Shown: positions 30,335 to 39,256, numbered from the stretch's first letter. The stretch: DNA of 64,000 nt from Candidatus Bathyarchaeia archaeon (GCA_050013255.1 JBEKFP010000001.1:64001-128000); one strand, 5' to 3'. Program-made: numbers and translations. Notes: generated by a model from the letters alone, not told the origin.

Positions 30335-31852
30335 TTACTTGCGTTTGGATATGTTCTTCTTCCATGTCAATTGCATCGACTTTGGCCTGTTGGCCTTGGC
30401 TTCGTCTATTCTTGTCACACTCGTTGCATGTGGGCTTGTTGCAGGTTGGTCGGAATTTGAGTAAGCTTCCTCGCTAATCTTGGCGAAGCCGTCGATCATT
30501 GCGTCAAGTTCCTCTTTGGCTACGGTTTCGGTTGGCTCAGCCATCATGGCCTCCTCTATGATTAAGGGGAAGTAGACCGTTGGCGGGTGTACTCCAAAAT
30601 CCAGCAACCTCTTTGCTACCTGAAGTGCTGTGACGCCCGTTTCCTTTGCGAGTGCTGACGCGGACAGGACGAATTCATGTTTCCTAGGAATCCCTTCTCC
30701 GTACGGAAGCGAGAAACCTTTGATTTTTCGAAGTTTTTCTGCCATGTAATTGGCGTTGAGAACAGCAATCTCCGACGCTGTTTCTAGGCCTTCCTTTCCA
30801 TGAAGAAGAATGTAGGTGTAAGCACGAAGGACTACGGCGGCGCTGCCGTGAAACGCTCTGACCTTCCCGATACTTTTCGGCCTGTTGTAGTCAAGGTAGT
30901 ACCTCTCTCCGTCAAATTCGACAGTCGGTACGGGCAAGTAGTCCTCGAGACGGCTCGTGACCCCAACTGGGCCGGCGCCCGGCCCACCTCCCCCGTGCGG
31001 TGTTGCGAAGGTTTTGTGCAGGTTGATGTGAACAATATCGAAGCCCATGTCGCCTGGTTTAGCCTTCCCCATGATCGCGTTGAGGTTTGCGCCGTCGTAG
31101 TAGAGCAGCCCGCCAGAATCATGAACTATGCCTGCGATTTCGAGGATCTTCCGTTCGAAAATCCCAAGTGTGTTTGGGTTTGTTACCATTAGGCCGGCCG
31201 TATTCGGTCCGACGGCGCTCTTTAGCGCCTCCGTATCCACGCAGCCCTCTGAATCTGAAGGAACCTCAACCACTTTGTAACCAGCCATTGCTGCGCTGGC
31301 AGGGTTCGTCCCATGGGCTGAATCAGGAACGATTATCTCATCACGCTTTGTGTCAGCCTTGTCGCGATGGTACGCTCGCATCAGCATGACACCAGTGTAT
31401 TCCCCGTGTGCTCCGGCCGCGGGTTGCAACGTTATCTTCTGCATCCCAACAATGTTCGCTAGAAAGTTCGCAGCCTCATAGAGGATTTGAAGAATGCCCT
31501 GTACGGTCCTCAGGTCTTGGTATGGGTGTAACTCTTGGATTTTATGTGAAGCAGCTACGAGATCACAAAGTTTCGGGTTGTATTTCATTGTGCAGCTTCC
31601 GAGCGGATAAAGGCCGAGGTCGACGCCGAAGTTTTCTTGCGAGAGTCGGGTGAAGTGACGAACTACTTCAATCTCCGAGACCTCAGGCAGCGATAATGGT
31701 GCAACGCGCCGAAGCTTCAGTGGGACACTTTCTAGGGCTGCATCGCGCTCCTTAGTGGAGGAGAGCGTATGGAAGCCGACTTTTCCTGGTCGGGACAATT
31801 CGATGATGGGGGGTTCGTCCCATTTCGCTTGACCATAGCCCATTAGTCTCAA
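30335..31852 (-). CDS. gcvPB: Glycine dehydrogenase subunit 2
   Basis: YPLGSCTMKYNP, QPAAGAHGE, HINLHKTFATPHGGGGPG. Confidence 0.97.
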   Translation of the reverse strand: MRLMGYGQAKWDEPPIIELSRPGKVGFHTLSSTKERDAALESVPLKLRRVAPLSLPEVSEIEVVRHFTRLSQENFGVDLGLYPLGSCTMKYNPKLCDLVAASHKIQELHPYQDLRTVQGILQILYEAANFLANIVGMQKITLQPAAGAHGEYTGVMLMRAYHRDKADTKRDEIIVPDSAHGTNPASAAMAGYKVVEVPSDSEGCVDTEALKSAVGPNTAGLMVTNPNTLGIFERKILEIAGIVHDSGGLLYYDGANLNAIMGKAKPGDMGFDIVHINLHKTFATPHGGGGPGAGPVGVTSRLEDYLPVPTVEFDGERYYLDYNRPKSIGKVRAFHGSAAVVLRAYTYILLHGKEGLETASEIAVLNANYMAEKLRKIKGFSLPYGEGIPRKHEFVLSASALAKETGVTALQVAKRLLDFGVHPPTVYFPLIIEEAMMAEPTETVAKEELDAMIDGFAKISEEAYSNSDQPATSPHATSVTRIDEAKANRPKSMQLTWKKNISKRK

Positions 31853-33237
31853 GCCCCCACGGTTTGCCGAAGCTTATCGGCGAGCATCTCGATGTCTCCG
31901 TGCGCGTGAACTTCCGTAAAGCAGTAAAGTGCTGTCTGGCCTAATTCCGGAAAATAAGCGCTCACGTCTAATCCGCCTTGGATCCCTGCCTTCAACAAGG
32001 CCTCATTTACCTCGGCTACTTTCTTCCCACATTTATCGAAGTTCACCGTGAACTCCATGAAGTGGAATGCCTCAAAACCCGGGGCTGACACCCCTCGGAT
32101 TTTCCGTAACTGTTCAATTGCGTACGAGGTCCTATCCAAGATTGTCGCGCAAAGCTCCCTCAAACCCTTCGGGCCTTGAAGAGCGAGGTACATTGCGGCA
32201 GCTAACGCCAAGAGAGCCTCATTTGTGCAAATGTTCGATGTGGCCTTCTCTCGACGAATGTGTTGCTCACGCGTTTGTAACGCCATGCAGTAGGCGTCCT
32301 GCTTACCATCTTGTGTTGTTGTTTTTCCGATGATTCGGCCTGGCATTTGCCTGAGGAGCGGATCGCCTTTGCATGCAAAAATGCCCAGTAGGGGCCCGCC
32401 ATAGTTCATATGGTTACCAAGCGGCTGCCCTTCACCAACAACTATGTCCGCGCCCACCTCTCCTGGTGCTTTCAAAACGCCTAGCGAGATAGGTTCGCAT
32501 CCAACAAGAAATAGAGCCCCGCTCTTGTGGGCCAGTTGAGCTATCTCTTCGCACGACTGTTCAACGAAACCAAGAAACGACGGACATTCCAAGTAAACCC
32601 CGGCGGTACGGTCGGACACCTTCCTCTTCAGATCGGTAAGGTCAACGGCCCCTGTCCGTTTATCCTGTTCAACCTCAACGATCTTGATGTCTGCAGGTTC
32701 GCAAAAAGTTCTCAGAGTTGAAAGACGTTCAGGGTGAATGAAGTGTGGCACAATGAACTCGGAACGGTGAGTCACTCTCGAAGCCATCCTAGCTGCCTCT
32801 CCCAGCGCAGTCGACCAATCGTACAGCGAGCTGTTGGAGTAGTCCATTGCGGTTAGCTCGCAGATCATGCTTTGATATTCGAACAAGGCTTGTAGCATTC
32901 CTTGCGAGATTTCCGGTTGGTATGGCGTGTAAGAGGTTAGGAATTCGCCTCTGCTGATAATCGCGTCCACCGCGGCTGGAACATGGTGCGGCCAGATACC
33001 CCCTCCGAGAAAAGATAGCACATCACGGGTTGAGAGGTTCTTGTTCAGAAGCCCTTCGACATGACGTCTAGCCTCCATCTCCGAGAGCTTCGATGGAATC
33101 GCTAGGGAGCCCTTCGTTCGTACGGCAAGTGGGATGTCTTTGTAAAGGTCCTCAATTGTTCGAGCGCCAATCTCCTTGAGCATCTGGCGCGTAATGGATT
33201 CCTCAGCATTCGGAATGTACGGATGAGGTTTCGACAA
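31849..33237 (-). CDS. gcvPA: Glycine dehydrogenase subunit 1
   Basis: TSYTPYQPEISQGMLQALFEYQ, REQHIRREKATSNICTN. Confidence 0.97.
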   Translation of the reverse strand: MSKPHPYIPNAEESITRQMLKEIGARTIEDLYKDIPLAVRTKGSLAIPSKLSEMEARRHVEGLLNKNLSTRDVLSFLGGGIWPHHVPAAVDAIISRGEFLTSYTPYQPEISQGMLQALFEYQSMICELTAMDYSNSSLYDWSTALGEAARMASRVTHRSEFIVPHFIHPERLSTLRTFCEPADIKIVEVEQDKRTGAVDLTDLKRKVSDRTAGVYLECPSFLGFVEQSCEEIAQLAHKSGALFLVGCEPISLGVLKAPGEVGADIVVGEGQPLGNHMNYGGPLLGIFACKGDPLLRQMPGRIIGKTTTQDGKQDAYCMALQTREQHIRREKATSNICTNEALLALAAAMYLALQGPKGLRELCATILDRTSYAIEQLRKIRGVSAPGFEAFHFMEFTVNFDKCGKKVAEVNEALLKAGIQGGLDVSAYFPELGQTALYCFTEVHAHGDIEMLADKLRQTVGA

Positions 33238-33513
33238 GTTATCGCGTCCTCGCGCCGGCCTTTACCTGTTGTACATATTATTCGGTTTTGGTCATCTGAG
33301 AGAATGGGAAATCATTCATCGTTCAGATTCATGCTAGAGGCTACCTTCAGTTCTTCCGGGATTCCTATTCTACGCTTAAACTCGTAGATTGTCTTAGTTG
33401 TGGAGATCGGCTTTGTCTGATTGAACCGTAAGTGTTTTCTTTAAACGTCGCATTAACCTCCCTCTCGCTTGCGAGCTGAGGGAAAATAGACGCAAAACTA
33501 TGGAGCCAAGACG

Positions 33514-34284
33514 TTGCATCTTCCCTGTGGTATTGACCGCACAGCTGTTGTGGAAGAGAAGCGCCTCCTTGCGCCTGAGACACATGTTGGTCCTGGTGCT
33601 CGCATAATTGGAGCTGTGAAGACCTCTAGGGGAGCATTCATCGATGCGAACGCGACGCTTTACGGCCCTCTCGCAGTAGGTAAACGCACGTATATCGGAC
33701 CGAACTGCGTCATCGGGTTCCCTGCTGCCAATGAGCTCAAAGAGTTGACGCGTTCACACCAGATCAAGCGGAAGAAAACGACCACGCTGGGCGACAACTG
33801 CACATTAAGAGCGGGCACAATTCTCTACTCAGATGTTCGAGTCGCTGACGAAGTCGCATTCGGCCACAACGTGCTCGTGAGAGAAAATGTGACGATCGGC
33901 CCCCAAACAAAAATTGGAACCAATGTTGTGATTGATGGAAGCACACGCATAGGAGCGAAGGTTTCGATACAAACTGGGGTATACATCTGCACATATTCGG
34001 TTGTCGAGGACGGAGTCTTCCTCGGCCCCTGTTGCGTCTTCACAAACGACAAATACGTCGTCCAGAAACCATTCAAACTTATCGGGCCTACCGTGAAGAA
34101 AGGCGCAAGCATTGGCGCGAACGCGCTACTGTTTCCTGGGGTGACAGTGGGAGAAGGAGCTGTTGTGGGTTCGCAGGCGATGGTGAATTCCGATGTTCCT
34201 GCCCGAACAATTTTCGTGGGCCTCCCAGCTAGGAAATTGAGGGATGTACCCGACGATTGGCGGTCGTCACTTTTGCAAAGTTGA
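33514..34284 (+). CDS. Hexapeptide-repeat acyltransferase (WbpD/WxcM-like sugar N-acyltransferase)
   Basis: Left-handed beta-helix repeats; VFLGPCCVFTNDKY, GASIGANA, G-PAR. Confidence 0.85.
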   Translation: MHLPCGIDRTAVVEEKRLLAPETHVGPGARIIGAVKTSRGAFIDANATLYGPLAVGKRTYIGPNCVIGFPAANELKELTRSHQIKRKKTTTLGDNCTLRAGTILYSDVRVADEVAFGHNVLVRENVTIGPQTKIGTNVVIDGSTRIGAKVSIQTGVYICTYSVVEDGVFLGPCCVFTNDKYVVQKPFKLIGPTVKKGASIGANALLFPGVTVGEGAVVGSQAMVNSDVPARTIFVGLPARKLRDVPDDWRSSLLQS

Positions 34285-34382
34285 TTCAATCCGGGTCAAC
34301 AGAACGAATAAATATTGAACTTTGCATTCACGGGGCGCCATATGTATGAGCATAACCCGATGAAAGCGGAGTCAAGCTGAGG

Positions 34383-36110
34383 TTGAAGATAAAGTTCGTA
34401 CTGGTTATCACAATCTTGCTTCTCGCTCTTGCAATGGCCACACCGCTCCAATCGACGAAGGCGCAGACCAACCAGACCAATCTAACCATTCATGTCGTAA
34501 GAGTAGTGGCAGTTGGAGTCTGGGGAGTCACACATGTAACCGACTTCTTCACAATTCAGAACAACGGAACGGCGACAGCATCATCTCTTGATTTCGGGTT
34601 TTCACGCTTATACCGAAACAACGTGTACTACGCCAGTGCAAAGGATAGCCAAGGAAGAGATTTACTGCTGGACGCAGACGTAGCCCAGGGCACTGAAATC
34701 TACTGGATGCGTGCCCACTTCGCCCAGGACTTGGGTCCTAACCAAACCTACGTTTTCACAGTGCAATCCGTATTGAACGGCGTGTTAACTCAGGCCCCAG
34801 GAGGCTACCAGTACAATTTCACCGCAGCCCCCATCCTCAATCAAGACGCTAGTTACGCCAATGTGACTTTCATTGGTGCACCAGGATCCACATTCATCCT
34901 TCCCAACCCGACTCCATATCAAACGTTCACTTATCAGGGCCAACCTGCCCTCTTCAGGCACTTCAAGCCTTGGAAAGCCAACTCCCTTGATTCATTTTAC
35001 GCGCCCTACAGAACCGTAGGAGAGTACCTCGTCGACCTCTCATCCGTGGAGCGCGATATCAACGTGGGAAGCACTGGCGACCTCACTATAACGGACACCT
35101 ACAACCTTCACAACATCGGCATAGAAATTACATCATTGACGATTTCGCTTCCACAAGGCGCGTCGAACGTTATGGCCTACGATGTTGTGGGTGCAATGTG
35201 GACCAGCCCACAAAACCCAGCCGCACCATACCAAATCACAATCTCGCCAAGGTACACAGCGGGCATTGGAACCAATCAGAACTTTGCATTCACATTGACC
35301 TACAATATCCCACAGTCACAGTACCTCAAACAACTCAATTGGTGGGGAACGTACAACCTGACCATCGGCCTTCTCAACAATGCGGACGACTTCCTTTTCG
35401 ATGCAGCAACCGTTAAACTGATAACTCCAAGCGGAGTGACCGTTGCTAACGTTAAGACTCCTACTCAACCATCCCTCACAAATCCAATTCAGTACGACCC
35501 AACAGATCGAGCTTTTGCACTCCAAGGCATCACCAACCAGAACAACGTAACTGTTGGACTGATCCTGAACTATGCGCCCTTCTGGTCAGCGTATGGGGCG
35601 TTACCCTGGATCTTTGGCCTCGAACTTGCCCTCGCGGCATTTGCCCTAGCCGTCAAGGTCAGACGAGGCCCAGAGCTCGCGGTACCGGTTCCTGTTGAGA
35701 AGCTTAGAGAATTCGTCGGCCTATATGACGAAAGGCTCGCATTGTCAAGAGAACTCGTTGTAATGGAAGAAGAAGTGGCCAGAGGCGGTCTCGTGAAGCA
35801 TGAGTTTAGAAGACGAACGAAAGTGATGGAACTCAGGCTGGACGAGATTAACAAATCGCTTATGGAAGTTAAAGCTGAGCTGCGTGGCATTACCCCACGG
35901 TACGATGAGTTGATACGTAGAATCGATAGAGCCGAAGCCGAGATACACGTCTCACGAGCCAGCCTTAGCCAAGTAAGGTCCCAGTACAGATCGGGCAAAA
36001 CAACTCGTGAAACTTACGACGCCATGGTGAAGGATATCATGAAACGTATCGACCGTGCAGAAGAGACTGTAGAGACGATTCTGATCACTTTGCGAGAAGA
36101 CGCAAGGTAG
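34383..36110 (+). CDS. Ribophorin I (RPN1/Ost1)-like type I membrane glycoprotein
   Basis: Signal peptide; beta-rich ectodomain with many N-x-T sequons; ER-I-V---G, LP--A--V---D--G, I-PRY, Y-IP---YL, VK---P-G; one TM; ~145-aa helical tail. Confidence 0.72.
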   Translation: MKIKFVLVITILLLALAMATPLQSTKAQTNQTNLTIHVVRVVAVGVWGVTHVTDFFTIQNNGTATASSLDFGFSRLYRNNVYYASAKDSQGRDLLLDADVAQGTEIYWMRAHFAQDLGPNQTYVFTVQSVLNGVLTQAPGGYQYNFTAAPILNQDASYANVTFIGAPGSTFILPNPTPYQTFTYQGQPALFRHFKPWKANSLDSFYAPYRTVGEYLVDLSSVERDINVGSTGDLTITDTYNLHNIGIEITSLTISLPQGASNVMAYDVVGAMWTSPQNPAAPYQITISPRYTAGIGTNQNFAFTLTYNIPQSQYLKQLNWWGTYNLTIGLLNNADDFLFDAATVKLITPSGVTVANVKTPTQPSLTNPIQYDPTDRAFALQGITNQNNVTVGLILNYAPFWSAYGALPWIFGLELALAAFALAVKVRRGPELAVPVPVEKLREFVGLYDERLALSRELVVMEEEVARGGLVKHEFRRRTKVMELRLDEINKSLMEVKAELRGITPRYDELIRRIDRAEAEIHVSRASLSQVRSQYRSGKTTRETYDAMVKDIMKRIDRAEETVETILITLREDAR

Positions 36111-36183: not shown

Positions 36184-37434
36184 ATGGCCGATCAAATCCC
36201 AGTCTCAAAATTGCAGGAATGGCTGCGGAAATCCCTCTCATCCAGCCTCACCCAAGCAGAGCGTGAGCGCGACAAGCTGATGGGTGAGATAAAACGTGGA
36301 TTGGATTCAATTACTGAATTCTGCAGCCAATTGTCACGTAAGGCACAACAGGACATGGAATCAAAGCGGGACAATAGAGCACAGTATAGGGCGGCAAAAG
36401 CAGTGGCACGGTTGACGGCCATAATCCCGGAAATGTGCAAGCAGTTTAACGTCCCTACAGAGAACGACTCTACCAGCTTAAGAAACCTGCAACGCGAGAC
36501 CTCGAAGCTCGCATCCGAAGCGGCACGAACCAGGGAGACTTGGCTTCGCCAGATTAGGCCTTACTACATTATCGACATGATGACGCTGGGAGGCAACATT
36601 GACAAGCTACGTAGGCTGGGCGACGAGCTTCACAATTTCCTGATAGGGCACGGATCTTTACTACGATCGCTGGAGGAGTTGAACGAGAAACTTGAGTCCC
36701 TTGCAAAGTTGCAGGCCTTTAGAGATTCAGCAACTCAACAGAGACGGTCATTGGAGGAGAAACTTGGCGAAACGGAACGTGTCAACAACTCGTTGAAAAA
36801 CGAAGTTGGCGAAATTCGTCAGAACCCAAAGATCAAGAAGTACATGGAAATTAATACTGAGCTAAGAGCACTTAGAAGCGAATTGATACGAACCGGGTTC
36901 AGCAGGCTTGGTAGGCCCTTCAAGAAGCTCGTATCGATTTCAGAACGCGGGGATTACGCGCTTCCAATTGAAGTACGGGAAAGTGCGAAGGAGTACACGA
37001 AGAAGCCATTCGCCACTTTCCTCTCTGAAGAAAGCGGTTATCCTCGGCTAAAGGCAGTAATGTCTGCTCTGTCTGGTGCCGTTTCTAGCGGAAAACTGGC
37101 CCTCAAGCAACGGGAAGCTAAGAAAGTGATTGAGCGAACGGACCAGGTTGTTTCCGGTAATTCGTTGGCAAAGGTGCATGAATTGTCGAGAGATCGCAAG
37201 CGCACCTATGATGAGTTCTTGGCCGATAAGGAAACGGCTGCCCTGGTGCAACAGCTTAGGGAGCTTCGTGTGAAGGGTCGAGCAAACCGGGCTGTCCATG
37301 ATGAACTCAAAGTTGACCTACGACGTGCAATTGGGAATGAAAAGCGATTCGACGAGCAGGTTAGTTCTCTGTTAGCAGAAATCGAATCCTTCTCACGCAA
37401 ACTATCTGGCGCCGACTTGAAACTAGAACTATAG
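36184..37434 (+). CDS. Long coiled-coil hypothetical protein
   Basis: 416 aa, almost all helical with heptad character; no P-loop seen. Confidence 0.75.
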   Translation: MADQIPVSKLQEWLRKSLSSSLTQAERERDKLMGEIKRGLDSITEFCSQLSRKAQQDMESKRDNRAQYRAAKAVARLTAIIPEMCKQFNVPTENDSTSLRNLQRETSKLASEAARTRETWLRQIRPYYIIDMMTLGGNIDKLRRLGDELHNFLIGHGSLLRSLEELNEKLESLAKLQAFRDSATQQRRSLEEKLGETERVNNSLKNEVGEIRQNPKIKKYMEINTELRALRSELIRTGFSRLGRPFKKLVSISERGDYALPIEVRESAKEYTKKPFATFLSEESGYPRLKAVMSALSGAVSSGKLALKQREAKKVIERTDQVVSGNSLAKVHELSRDRKRTYDEFLADKETAALVQQLRELRVKGRANRAVHDELKVDLRRAIGNEKRFDEQVSSLLAEIESFSRKLSGADLKLEL

Positions 37435-37447
37435 TAGAGGTTACTTA

Positions 37448-39256
37448 CTAGATGAGAACTCGAATTCTCTGTTTAGAAACTAAGGCACGTAAGAGGTTTC
37501 GGCCCAAGTCAGATTTCTTTGAGACTCTGATCTGGCCCTTCTTGCCGATGGTTGCAGAGAACAGGTATTGGTCTCCAACGTAAACGTTCGCAGCTGTGCC
37601 CGTCAGATCTTCTTCAAACACTATGTCAATTCGATTTCCTACTTCTCTAATCTCGTAGCGAACCTCTTTCCCTGAGGAGCTAGGTGCCAAAGGTTCTACG
37701 TCGATTTTGACGCCTAGTTTTTCTTCAAGTTTCGTGACTGTGACACCCTTCTTTCCTATGAGTATGGGAACAATCTCGTTGTCGACTCGAACAACGGCAC
37801 GGTTGCCAGATACCAATGTGACCTCAGCGCCGGGGTCGAATTTCCTAATTTCTTGCAGTATTCTTTCCTCAGCTAACTTTTGTGTAGCGCTGATTGCGGG
37901 TTTTGCATCGCTTACTGGAATAATCACGTTCTCCTCGCCGAAGGTGTAGATCTCGAATTGTAAGGACCCGTTCTCGAAGTCGCGCACTTCAACAACTGGC
38001 CTCGCGAGGTCGGCCTCGATCATGCCCGTCGGAACCTTAACCGTGAGGTTTAGAGTGAAGAGGCTTCGGACTTCTCCATATTGGATGAAGATTATCGTGT
38101 CTATGATATGCGGGATCATTCCCAGCTCGACGCGGCCAATGAATCGTTGTATAGCGTTGATTGCCTCACTAGCGTGCACGACGCCAATCATCCCGACTCC
38201 TGCCAAGCGCATGTCAGCGAAGATCATGAAGTCCTTGCCTCGTCTCACCTCGTCGAACACGGTATAATCCGGCCTAACTAGGAGAAGAATCTCAGCGGTT
38301 TTCTCGAAATCTCCCTCCAGGGGACCGTATTGTGTGATTTCTGGGCCAACCTGCAAGTCTCGCGGTGACTCAAGCGTCTTGACGATCTTGTTCTGCCTCC
38401 AGTAGAACTCGGCTAGGGAAGAGGCAAAGGTAGTTTTTCCTGACCCGGGAGGGCCTGCTATTAGAATCCCTTCCGCTCCCGTTGCGAGCCGTTCCATCAG
38501 CTTTGTGGAAAGGCGATAGTCTTGTAGCGTGAGGCTAACTACGGGCCGAACGATTGTAACTTCCAAGCCGTCGGATAGTGGGGGTCTGGTGATTGCAACA
38601 CGGTAGCGTCCCAATTGGATTACCATCGCTCCGGCTCTGTTTATTTCGACAAAGCCTTCCCTGCTGACCCTTGCCGCCTCGGTTATCTCTCGAATGATTT
38701 GCTCAACTTCCTGTGTTGAGCTCGGTGTTTCGGAGAGGGCGACCAGCTCAAATTTGCCGGGCTTTCCTCTCTTTGCGAGTGCCCGCGTCCCCTCTTTCAG
38801 ATGGATGCTTGACGTGTCGGGTGTGAACAACTTCTCAAAAGCAAGATCAGTGGTTCTCACTTCGCCAGGGACATGTTTCACCTGTACGCCCGACGCTTCA
38901 GCTACCAGGGCTTGCACGTAATCGGCCGTCAGCAGAGTTCCATTCTCAGACCTAGCAACATCAGTGATGAGAGCATCGAGCCTACCGCTCCTCGCCAGCA
39001 TGATATCATTGTAGCCAGGCCGCTGCCCGAGAAATGTTAGCTTGATACCTTTACTCTCACAAAAAACCCGCAGCTTCTTGATTTCCTCAAGCCCAACGAA
39101 ACCTGGCTCTCGTCCTTTCGAAGCCTGTGCCTGAAGTTCATCTAACACTGCGTATGGGATTATTATCTCAACGTCAGTTAGTCCACCCTTCTCAATTACC
39201 GACGGCACGTTGCCGTCTATGATTATCGATGTATCGGGGACGAGTTTCTGAGTCAA
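37448..39256 (-). CDS. PINA: PIN domain + P-loop ATPase + KH
   Basis: VPDTS PIN start, AGPPGSGKTT, ESPRDLQV, RPDYTVFDEVR, IGKKG KH. Confidence 0.93.
   Translation of the reverse strand: MTQKLVPDTSIIIDGNVPSVIEKGGLTDVEIIIPYAVLDELQAQASKGREPGFVGLEEIKKLRVFCESKGIKLTFLGQRPGYNDIMLARSGRLDALITDVARSENGTLLTADYVQALVAEASGVQVKHVPGEVRTTDLAFEKLFTPDTSSIHLKEGTRALAKRGKPGKFELVALSETPSSTQEVEQIIREITEAARVSREGFVEINRAGAMVIQLGRYRVAITRPPLSDGLEVTIVRPVVSLTLQDYRLSTKLMERLATGAEGILIAGPPGSGKTTFASSLAEFYWRQNKIVKTLESPRDLQVGPEITQYGPLEGDFEKTAEILLLVRPDYTVFDEVRRGKDFMIFADMRLAGVGMIGVVHASEAINAIQRFIGRVELGMIPHIIDTIIFIQYGEVRSLFTLNLTVKVPTGMIEADLARPVVEVRDFENGSLQFEIYTFGEENVIIPVSDAKPAISATQKLAEERILQEIRKFDPGAEVTLVSGNRAVVRVDNEIVPILIGKKGVTVTKLEEKLGVKIDVEPLAPSSSGKEVRYEIREVGNRIDIVFEEDLTGTAANVYVGDQYLFSATIGKKGQIRVSKKSDLGRNLLRALVSKQRIRVLI

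Follow-up and report, generated by a model that had tools for sequence, protein, structure and literature searches.

Ribophorin I, the OST1 subunit of the oligosaccharyltransferase (OST), is usually counted among the eukaryotic signature proteins that link eukaryotes to Asgard archaea. A described archaeal counterpart is OST1 of the Asgard archaeon Candidatus Prometheoarchaeum syntrophicum MK-D1, whose cytoplasmic domain (PDB 8WHN) pulls down human ribosomes just as the human domain does, in contrast to the MK-D1 ectodomain (Carilo et al., J Biol Chem 2024, PMC11417166). The occurrence of OST1 in TACK archaea was stated in the same study, whereas other papers still assign prokaryotic ribophorin I homologues to Asgard archaea only. 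Here, we analyzed a stretch of 64,000 nucleotides from Candidatus Bathyarchaeia archaeon (GCA_050013255.1, JBEKFP010000001.1:64001-128000; hereafter the window), in which positions 34383-36110 of the plus strand encode a protein of 575 amino acids (aa). It belongs to the Ribophorin_I family and has the full RPN1 architecture, composed of a signal peptide, two beta-sandwich outer domains, one transmembrane (TM) helix, and a cytoplasmic four-helix bundle. We consider this gene to be, probably, the Bathyarchaeial orthologue of OST1/ribophorin I, encoding a type-I membrane glycoprotein of the cytoplasmic membrane that would act as a non-catalytic partner of AglB (STT3) and carry a ribosome-holding tail.

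A Bathyarchaeial protein with the full RPN1 architecture

Evaluation of the open reading frame (ORF) list and the translation showed a complete gene at 34383-36110 (+) with 575 open codons, zero internal stops, a TTG start, and a TAA/TGA-type stop included, stops being abundant on the opposite strand. The TTG start is supported by the homologues, since these share the same N-terminal start (MK[TS]KF...). An AlphaFold2 model calculated with 29 homologues (mean pLDDT, the predicted local confidence, 85) displayed beta strands between residues 34 and 396, a TM helix at 407-427, the residues KVRRGPE, and four long helices at 438-574. In this model, the strands can be read as two beta sandwiches with a predicted boundary near residue 215.

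The signal peptide (aa 1-27; 34383-34463, +) has a hydrophobic core and ends in TKA before Q; it was modelled as a helix (2-19) followed by a low-confidence linker, and this N-terminus is conserved in homologues. The N-terminal extracellular beta-sandwich domain (aa 32-215; 34476-35027, +), with strands at 34-211 and a pLDDT of ~90, is assigned six N-x-T sequons (N30, 33, 61, 120, 145, and 160), two more being located further along the ectodomain (N325 and N388). The membrane-proximal beta-sandwich domain (aa 216-398; 35028-35576, +) represents the best-conserved Ribophorin_I core, hosting the best Pfam stretch as well as the alignments to human RPN1 and yeast Ost1. The single TM segment (aa 399-428; 35577-35666, +; modelled as helices 399-405 and 407-427) is followed by KVRR, in agreement with the positive-inside rule, and the cytoplasmic four-helix bundle of the RPN1/OST1 type (aa 436-575; 35688-36107, +) completes the protein. 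Sequence and model together depict a type-I topology with a signal peptide, a large outer domain, and a single TM helix near the C-terminal third.

This layout had been proposed in an earlier note made from the DNA alone, and the intact 575-aa ORF, the strands at 34-396, and the 140-aa helical tail bear it out. All motifs quoted in that note, including those said to follow the RPN1/Ost1 order, were found in the translation in the given order, namely SVERDINVGSTG, ISLPQGASNVMAYDVVG, ITISPRY, LTYNIPQSQYL, DAATVKLITPSG, YRSGKTTRETY, and VETILITL. At least seven N-x-T sequons had been claimed for the ectodomain and eight were counted; compared with ~4.9 expected from composition this is a modest and not significant excess, and the sequons were therefore dropped as an argument.

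The family assignment rests on sequence as well as on structure. The Pfam Ribophorin_I model (PF04597), proposed as a check by the same note, matched the protein with an E-value of 2e-19 and a score of 70.5 bits (gathering score, 25), the best stretch covering aa 249-363 (profile positions 257-368), and the same gene was found by a six-frame search of the genome. In a HMMER search against PDB sequences, residues 248-364 aligned to human RPN1 276-390 (E 0.012) and the same region to yeast Ost1 288-396 (E 0.037), while the NCBIfam search provided no informative model for OST1. Over its full length, the protein aligned collinearly to an Odinarchaeia OST1 with 22% identity (E 2e-29). Foldseek comparison of the whole-chain model with the PDB returned human RPN1 or yeast Ost1 on all ranks from 1 to 8 (E 2.6e-27 to 6.9e-19), led by the human chain 8b6l_O (E 2.6e-27, 610 aligned columns) and including 6s7o_E (E 1.9e-23). 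Structural similarity (TM-score) to the yeast Ost1 chains 7oci_A and 6ezn_A was 0.69-0.70, normalized to the yeast chain, and ranged from 0.66 to 0.70 across yeast and OST-B chains. The next unrelated structures, i.e., integrins and aminopeptidase N-domains, followed at 6e-7 and worse, about 12 or more orders of magnitude behind. Since RPN1/Ost1 fill the first eight ranks, the possibility raised in the earlier note that S-layer or aminopeptidase domains might be the best structural matches, with RPN1 absent, was not borne out.

The cytoplasmic tail was additionally analyzed separately. Folded alone, it formed a confident four-helix bundle (pLDDT 94), and its sole Foldseek match below 1e-3 was the Asgard OST1 domain 8WHN, with a TM-score of 0.84 and a root-mean-square deviation of 2.1 Å over 139 columns. 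A single-sequence search of the PDB matched tail residues 435-570 to the same entry, named 'Ribophorin 1 superfamily protein' (E 3.7e-6), and a profile of 29 tails matched it over the whole length at E 4.8e-19, with no other credible relative. The tail of the Bathyarchaeial protein is, thus, a homologue of the domain of Asgard OST1 for which ribosome binding in vitro is on record, and a C-terminal cytoplasmic bundle of the RPN1/MK-D1 topology is present. The tail folded alone also matched human RPN1 468-607 structurally; the Z-score of this match by itself lies within the chance range of helical bundles, and the match spans the whole domain at the homologous position. Concerning the likeness to the human RPN1 end postulated beforehand, the structural part, linked through the Asgard homologue, could be retained, whereas the sequence similarity is not statistically supported, with no match to human RPN1 at E <= 10 (single sequence) or E <= 1 (profile).

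Comparison with homologues revealed the tail to be the most conserved segment of the protein. In the closer relatives, it shares 78-96% identity with the query compared with 44-85% for the outer domains, and it is again the best-kept segment in distant relatives; OST1 overall is the fastest-evolving gene of its syntenic block. The conservation of the tail is consistent with a conserved intracellular partner. The outer face would accordingly be free to drift while the cytoplasmic face is held by this partner, for which the ribosome is the obvious candidate.

AglB, an OSTC/DC2-like protein, and other candidate partners

The genome encodes AglB on the same contig as OST1 (G000:C1:455565-458336, -; L023:5563-8337), a protein of 924 aa with an STT3 Pfam match at E 2.4e-34 and the WWDYG motif at 546. 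AglB was found in 60 out of 61 Bathyarchaeia. Within the order of the host, AglB reaches ~900-930 aa by appended Big_3_5 and PKD immunoglobulin (Ig)-like domains (aa 737-901), most other Bathyarchaeia having AglB proteins of ~660-720 aa.

Located 3.1 kb from aglB is a gene for a protein of 152 aa with three TM segments (P0122; G000:C1:461468-461923, +; L023:11469-11927). Its match to Pfam OST3_OST6 is sub-threshold (21.8 vs 27 bits) and covers the membrane half of the profile, and 21 of 28 relatives do match this family. Already as a single sequence, P0122 matched human OSTC (DC2) of OST-A (6s7o_H) at E 5.6e-6; a profile of the 28 relatives extended this to E 8.7e-15 over 17-143 of 149 residues, compared with 0.075 for the membrane part of MAGT1. 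Judged by these sequence comparisons, P0122 is an OSTC/DC2-like, thioredoxin-less homologue of the Ost3/6 membrane domain, so that a membrane subunit of the Ost3/6 or DC2 (OSTC) type known from multi-subunit OSTs is present. In mammals, DC2 and KCP2 mediate the contact that the STT3A complex makes with the translocon (PMC5674889).

Coordinate comparison placed the OSTC-like gene on the same contig as aglB, at a distance of 0.4-8.5 kb, in at least 24 genomes from many families. The protein was detected in 59 out of 61 Bathyarchaeia and in 181 of 401 sampled genomes of the phylum (Thermoproteota). Its distribution resembles that of OST1 on family level, as both are missing from the large families f16, f25, f26, f30, and f31 (together 0/111 for either protein); exceptions are f6, with the OSTC-like protein only, and f20, with weak OST1-profile matches only, and all of these family counts are phylogenetically non-independent. 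The search for OST3/6 relatives suggested in the earlier note was, hence, productive, and its idea of a multi-subunit OST gains support from the linkage of the OSTC/DC2-like gene to aglB, the complex as such being predicted. No description of an aglB-linked OSTC/DC2-like archaeal subunit was found in the literature searched, and this subunit is the most useful addition of the present analysis.

Further partners were looked for with Pfam models. OST48/Wbp1 (PF03345), DAD1/Ost2 (PF02109), and Ost5/TMEM258 (PF05251) gave no match at E <= 0.001 in the genome, and control genomes gave none either. Likewise, TRAP alpha, beta, and gamma (PF03896, PF05753, PF07074) as well as eL28, a contact of the human RPN1 tail, had no Pfam match in the genome, these searches being run without a positive control. 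A complex prediction of AglB (38-632) with OST1 (30-432) from separate alignments yielded a median score of 0.20 compared with a mark of 0.32, which speaks neither for nor against binding.

Distribution, host genome, and neighborhood

Within the 401 sampled genomes, the Pfam Ribophorin_I model detected the OST1 family in 70, and a custom OST1 profile (E <= 1e-5) in 204, including 50 out of 59 other Bathyarchaeia. The latter profile found no match in the large families f16 (0/56), f25 (0/23), f26 (0/12), and f31 (0/15). In a representative library of 1.84 billion proteins, the tail profile matched 538 clusters at E <= 0.001 and 368 at 1e-10; in 150/150 best representative matches, the end of the tail domain coincides with the protein's C-terminus, and these proteins mostly comprise 540-640 aa. 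A precomputed PF04597 match is recorded for 120/120 listed close homologues, with most close relatives being labelled 'hypothetical protein', and one representative, 25% identical over the C-terminal two thirds, is already named OST subunit 1 in NCBI. The assumed rarity of ribophorin I outside Asgard archaea could not be upheld, considering its presence in about half of the sampled Thermoproteota, its published mention for TACK archaea (PMC11417166), and the annotated relative in NCBI. Consequently, the novelty of the window protein is low to moderate: it is a further member of a family already on record in TACK archaea.

Variants of the domain layout were observed as well. OST1 forms of ~400-420 aa retain the tail and are devoid of the N-terminal beta sandwich (L014 in G085; G183:C78:2741-3817; G053:C14:2630-3766). 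Two proteins of 975-1000 aa (P0262, P0275) combine the OST1 tail with an FKBP prolyl-isomerase domain, P0262 showing no Ribophorin_I match at E <= 0.001. The gene of this FKBP form adjoins topoisomerase VI genes and a gene of Glycos_transf_4 (PF00953), which we take to be the GlcNAc-1-P transferase family (L085:1804-6003, Logan contig SRR32938009_16610). Two homologues with 57-61% identity (P0033, P0097) are filed in NCBI under 'Candidatus Acidoferrales bacterium' and are probably archaeal contigs in mislabelled or mis-binned metagenome-assembled genomes (MAGs).

The host belongs to the Bathyarchaeia, in line with the non-Asgard origin supposed beforehand. Its closest records are Candidatus Bathyarchaeia MAGs, one of them with an OST1 of 88% identity and nine neighboring genes of 89-99% identity in the same order, and the ten-gene neighborhood of OST1 is syntenic in six Bathyarchaeia records. 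The gene sits on contig C1 (1.4 Mb) of a genome that comprises 2.46 Mb in three contigs. Because the closest relatives are Bathyarchaeia with the same gene order, and because this long contig is shared with aglB, the sequence represents neither an Asgard genome nor a stray contig.

Directly upstream of OST1 (33514-34284, +) lies a gene for a left-handed beta-helix acyl/acetyltransferase, which matches best, at a sub-threshold score, to the NeuD/PglB/VioB family of sugar acetyltransferases. This gene also adjoins OST1 in another family within the order (L018, 51% identity), and the enzyme may be a candidate for the modification of N-glycan sugars. The gene directly downstream (36184-37434, +) encodes a helical/coiled-coil orphan of 416 aa without a Pfam or NCBIfam family. 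We rejected it as an OST1 partner, as it has no family match and its synteny is limited to six close relatives; furthermore, its homologue is located on another contig in G222, and a protein query was negative in four more distant OST1-bearing genomes. The following gene (37448-39256, -), coding for a 602-aa PIN-ATPase-KH protein, shows by far the highest conservation in the block, with 87-99% identity across relatives where OST1 shows 59-88%. The divergent layout of gcvPB-gcvPA and OST1 (window 30335-36110) recurs in an Odinarchaeia-labelled MAG (L084:2829-7698, JBQSDL010000009.1) with identities of 55% (gcvPB), 45% (gcvPA), and 22% (OST1), reflecting either an old micro-synteny, chance, or a mislabelled bin.

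Role of OST1 and comparison with known systems

In the role we favor, OST1 would be a non-catalytic partner of the AglB oligosaccharyltransferase, positioned beside the SecYEG channel. Its outer domains would lie next to AglB, handling nascent or glycosylated chains, and its cytoplasmic bundle would hold the translating ribosome, thereby coupling N-glycosylation to translocation. The small, OSTC/DC2-like membrane protein whose gene lies near aglB is the probable third member of what may be a minimal, 'OST-A-like' complex. The most likely arrangement is an OST built on AglB and two or more accessory subunits, of which OST1 gives the ribosome-facing domain; from the homology and the architecture demonstrated above, we infer the binding of OST1 to AglB, SecYEG, and ribosomes.

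Several findings weigh against this assignment. The OST1 gene is located 357 kb from aglB without linkage in the relatives compared, whereas the OSTC-like gene is linked. Bathyarchaeial family f6 kept AglB and the OSTC-like protein with an OST1 match in 0/4 genomes, so that OST1 is dispensable there. Ost5, which bridges Ost1 and Stt3 in eukaryotes, was not detected, just as OST48, DAD1, TRAP, and eL28 were not, by Pfam searches lacking a positive control. In addition, the tail is weakly basic (net charge +1, isoelectric point 8.2), and family f22 harbors tail-less forms of ~430 aa in which the profile match ends just past the TM helix. On account of the missing linkage, family f6, the Ost5 result, and the weakly basic tail, we keep as a sizeable, if rather unlikely, explanation that the protein is a true OST1 homologue working without AglB. 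It would then receive ribosomes or escort nascent chains at the SecYEG translocon, or serve secreted proteins as a surface chaperone or lectin, and its recruitment to OST would have occurred later, on the Asgard/eukaryote line. The finding that the strongest constraint acts on the cytoplasmic tail, and not on the outer domains expected to touch AglB, also fits this explanation. Yet Ost1/RPN1 is an OST subunit in every organism studied (structures 6EZN, 6S7O, 8B6L), OST1 and the OSTC-like protein share their family-level distribution in the phylum, and a related tail-bearing gene, that of the FKBP form, adjoins a Glycos_transf_4 gene in another lineage, an arrangement we counted for the OST assignment.

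It is very improbable that the protein is merely some surface protein of Ig-like or beta-sandwich type (S-layer, adhesin, or a peptidase-like N-domain) anchored by a coiled coil, sharing with ribophorin the fold only. Weak secondary matches to fn3 (E 0.0027) and coiled-coil families could be read in this way, as could the aminopeptidase N-domains and integrins in the Foldseek list, but the Pfam score amounts to almost three times the curated threshold, the RPN1/Ost1 chains on ranks 1-8 lead by ~12 orders and cover the whole chain in order, the tail profile matches 8WHN at 4.8e-19, and the alignment with Asgard OST1 is collinear. A foreign gene, introduced by a mis-binned Asgard contig or by recent transfer from Asgard archaea, is barely credible. 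Although the genome carries a contamination estimate of 8.55% and the Odinarchaeia-labelled MAG shares the gcvPB-gcvPA-OST1 arrangement, the OST1 gene resides with aglB on the 1.4-Mb contig within a neighborhood syntenic in six Bathyarchaeia records, its family is found in 50/59 other sampled Bathyarchaeia genomes and in numerous further families of the phylum, the Odin protein shares only 22% identity with it, and the GC content is flat across the window.

Beyond the favored role of OST1 as an AglB partner, we tentatively put forward a wider and more doubtful proposal. Bathyarchaeia and many Thermoproteota might possess a minimal 'OST-A-like' set of AglB, the aglB-linked thioredoxin-less OSTC/DC2-like subunit, and OST1 with its ribosome-docking bundle, and co-translational N-glycosylation coupled to ribosome and translocon, together with the DC2-type adaptor, might predate the TACK/Asgard split. 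If true, coupled N-glycosylation would be no invention of Asgard archaea or eukaryotes, and the DC2-type adaptor, regarded as restricted to the STT3A complex in animals and plants, would be older than this split. Thioredoxin-bearing Ost3/6 and the tail-less Ost1 of yeast would then represent derived states.

The present data add support for a wide occurrence of the entire protein, with the cytoplasmic domain on which the ribosome docks in mammals, in the sister group. With about half of the Thermoproteota sampled carrying it, reconstructions of the origin of the endoplasmic reticulum (ER) translocon should regard it as an older invention of archaea. Judging from the linked OSTC/DC2-like gene, OSTs of archaea often seem to comprise more than one subunit, and the three genes offer a simple system in which to test how the coupling of glycosylation to translation arose. 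On the practical side, the window gene can be annotated as OST1 instead of 'hypothetical protein'.

Compared with the described systems, the Bathyarchaeia protein is ~21-22% identical to the Asgard OST1 of MK-D1, from which it differs by its Bathyarchaeia host, in which TRAP subunits were not found with Pfam models, and by being a TACK protein known here from sequence and predicted structure. Human RPN1, resolved in OST-A at the ribosome-Sec61-TRAP translocon (8B6L chain O, 6S7O chain E), shares 13-15% identity; here, the sequence similarity of the tail is not significant, the Bathyarchaeia protein would reside in the cell membrane and not in the ER, and of the human partners OST48, RPN2, DAD1, and TMEM258 none was detected in the Bathyarchaeia genome. 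With yeast Ost1 (6EZN, 7OCI, 6C26) it has the two beta-sandwich lumenal domains and the TM helix in common, whereas the resolved yeast chains (432-438 residues) end soon past this helix and offer no match to the Bathyarchaeia tail; in this absence of a tail, yeast Ost1 is resembled by the ~430-aa f22 forms of Thermoproteota. The same family and the same tail are found in the NCBI entry KYH37769.1 ('dolichyl-diphosphooligosaccharide--protein glycosyltransferase subunit 1'), with P0133 aligning at E 2e-27. Relative to such Bathyarchaeota/TACK entries, the window protein originates from a different Bathyarchaeia family, one of soil and peat.
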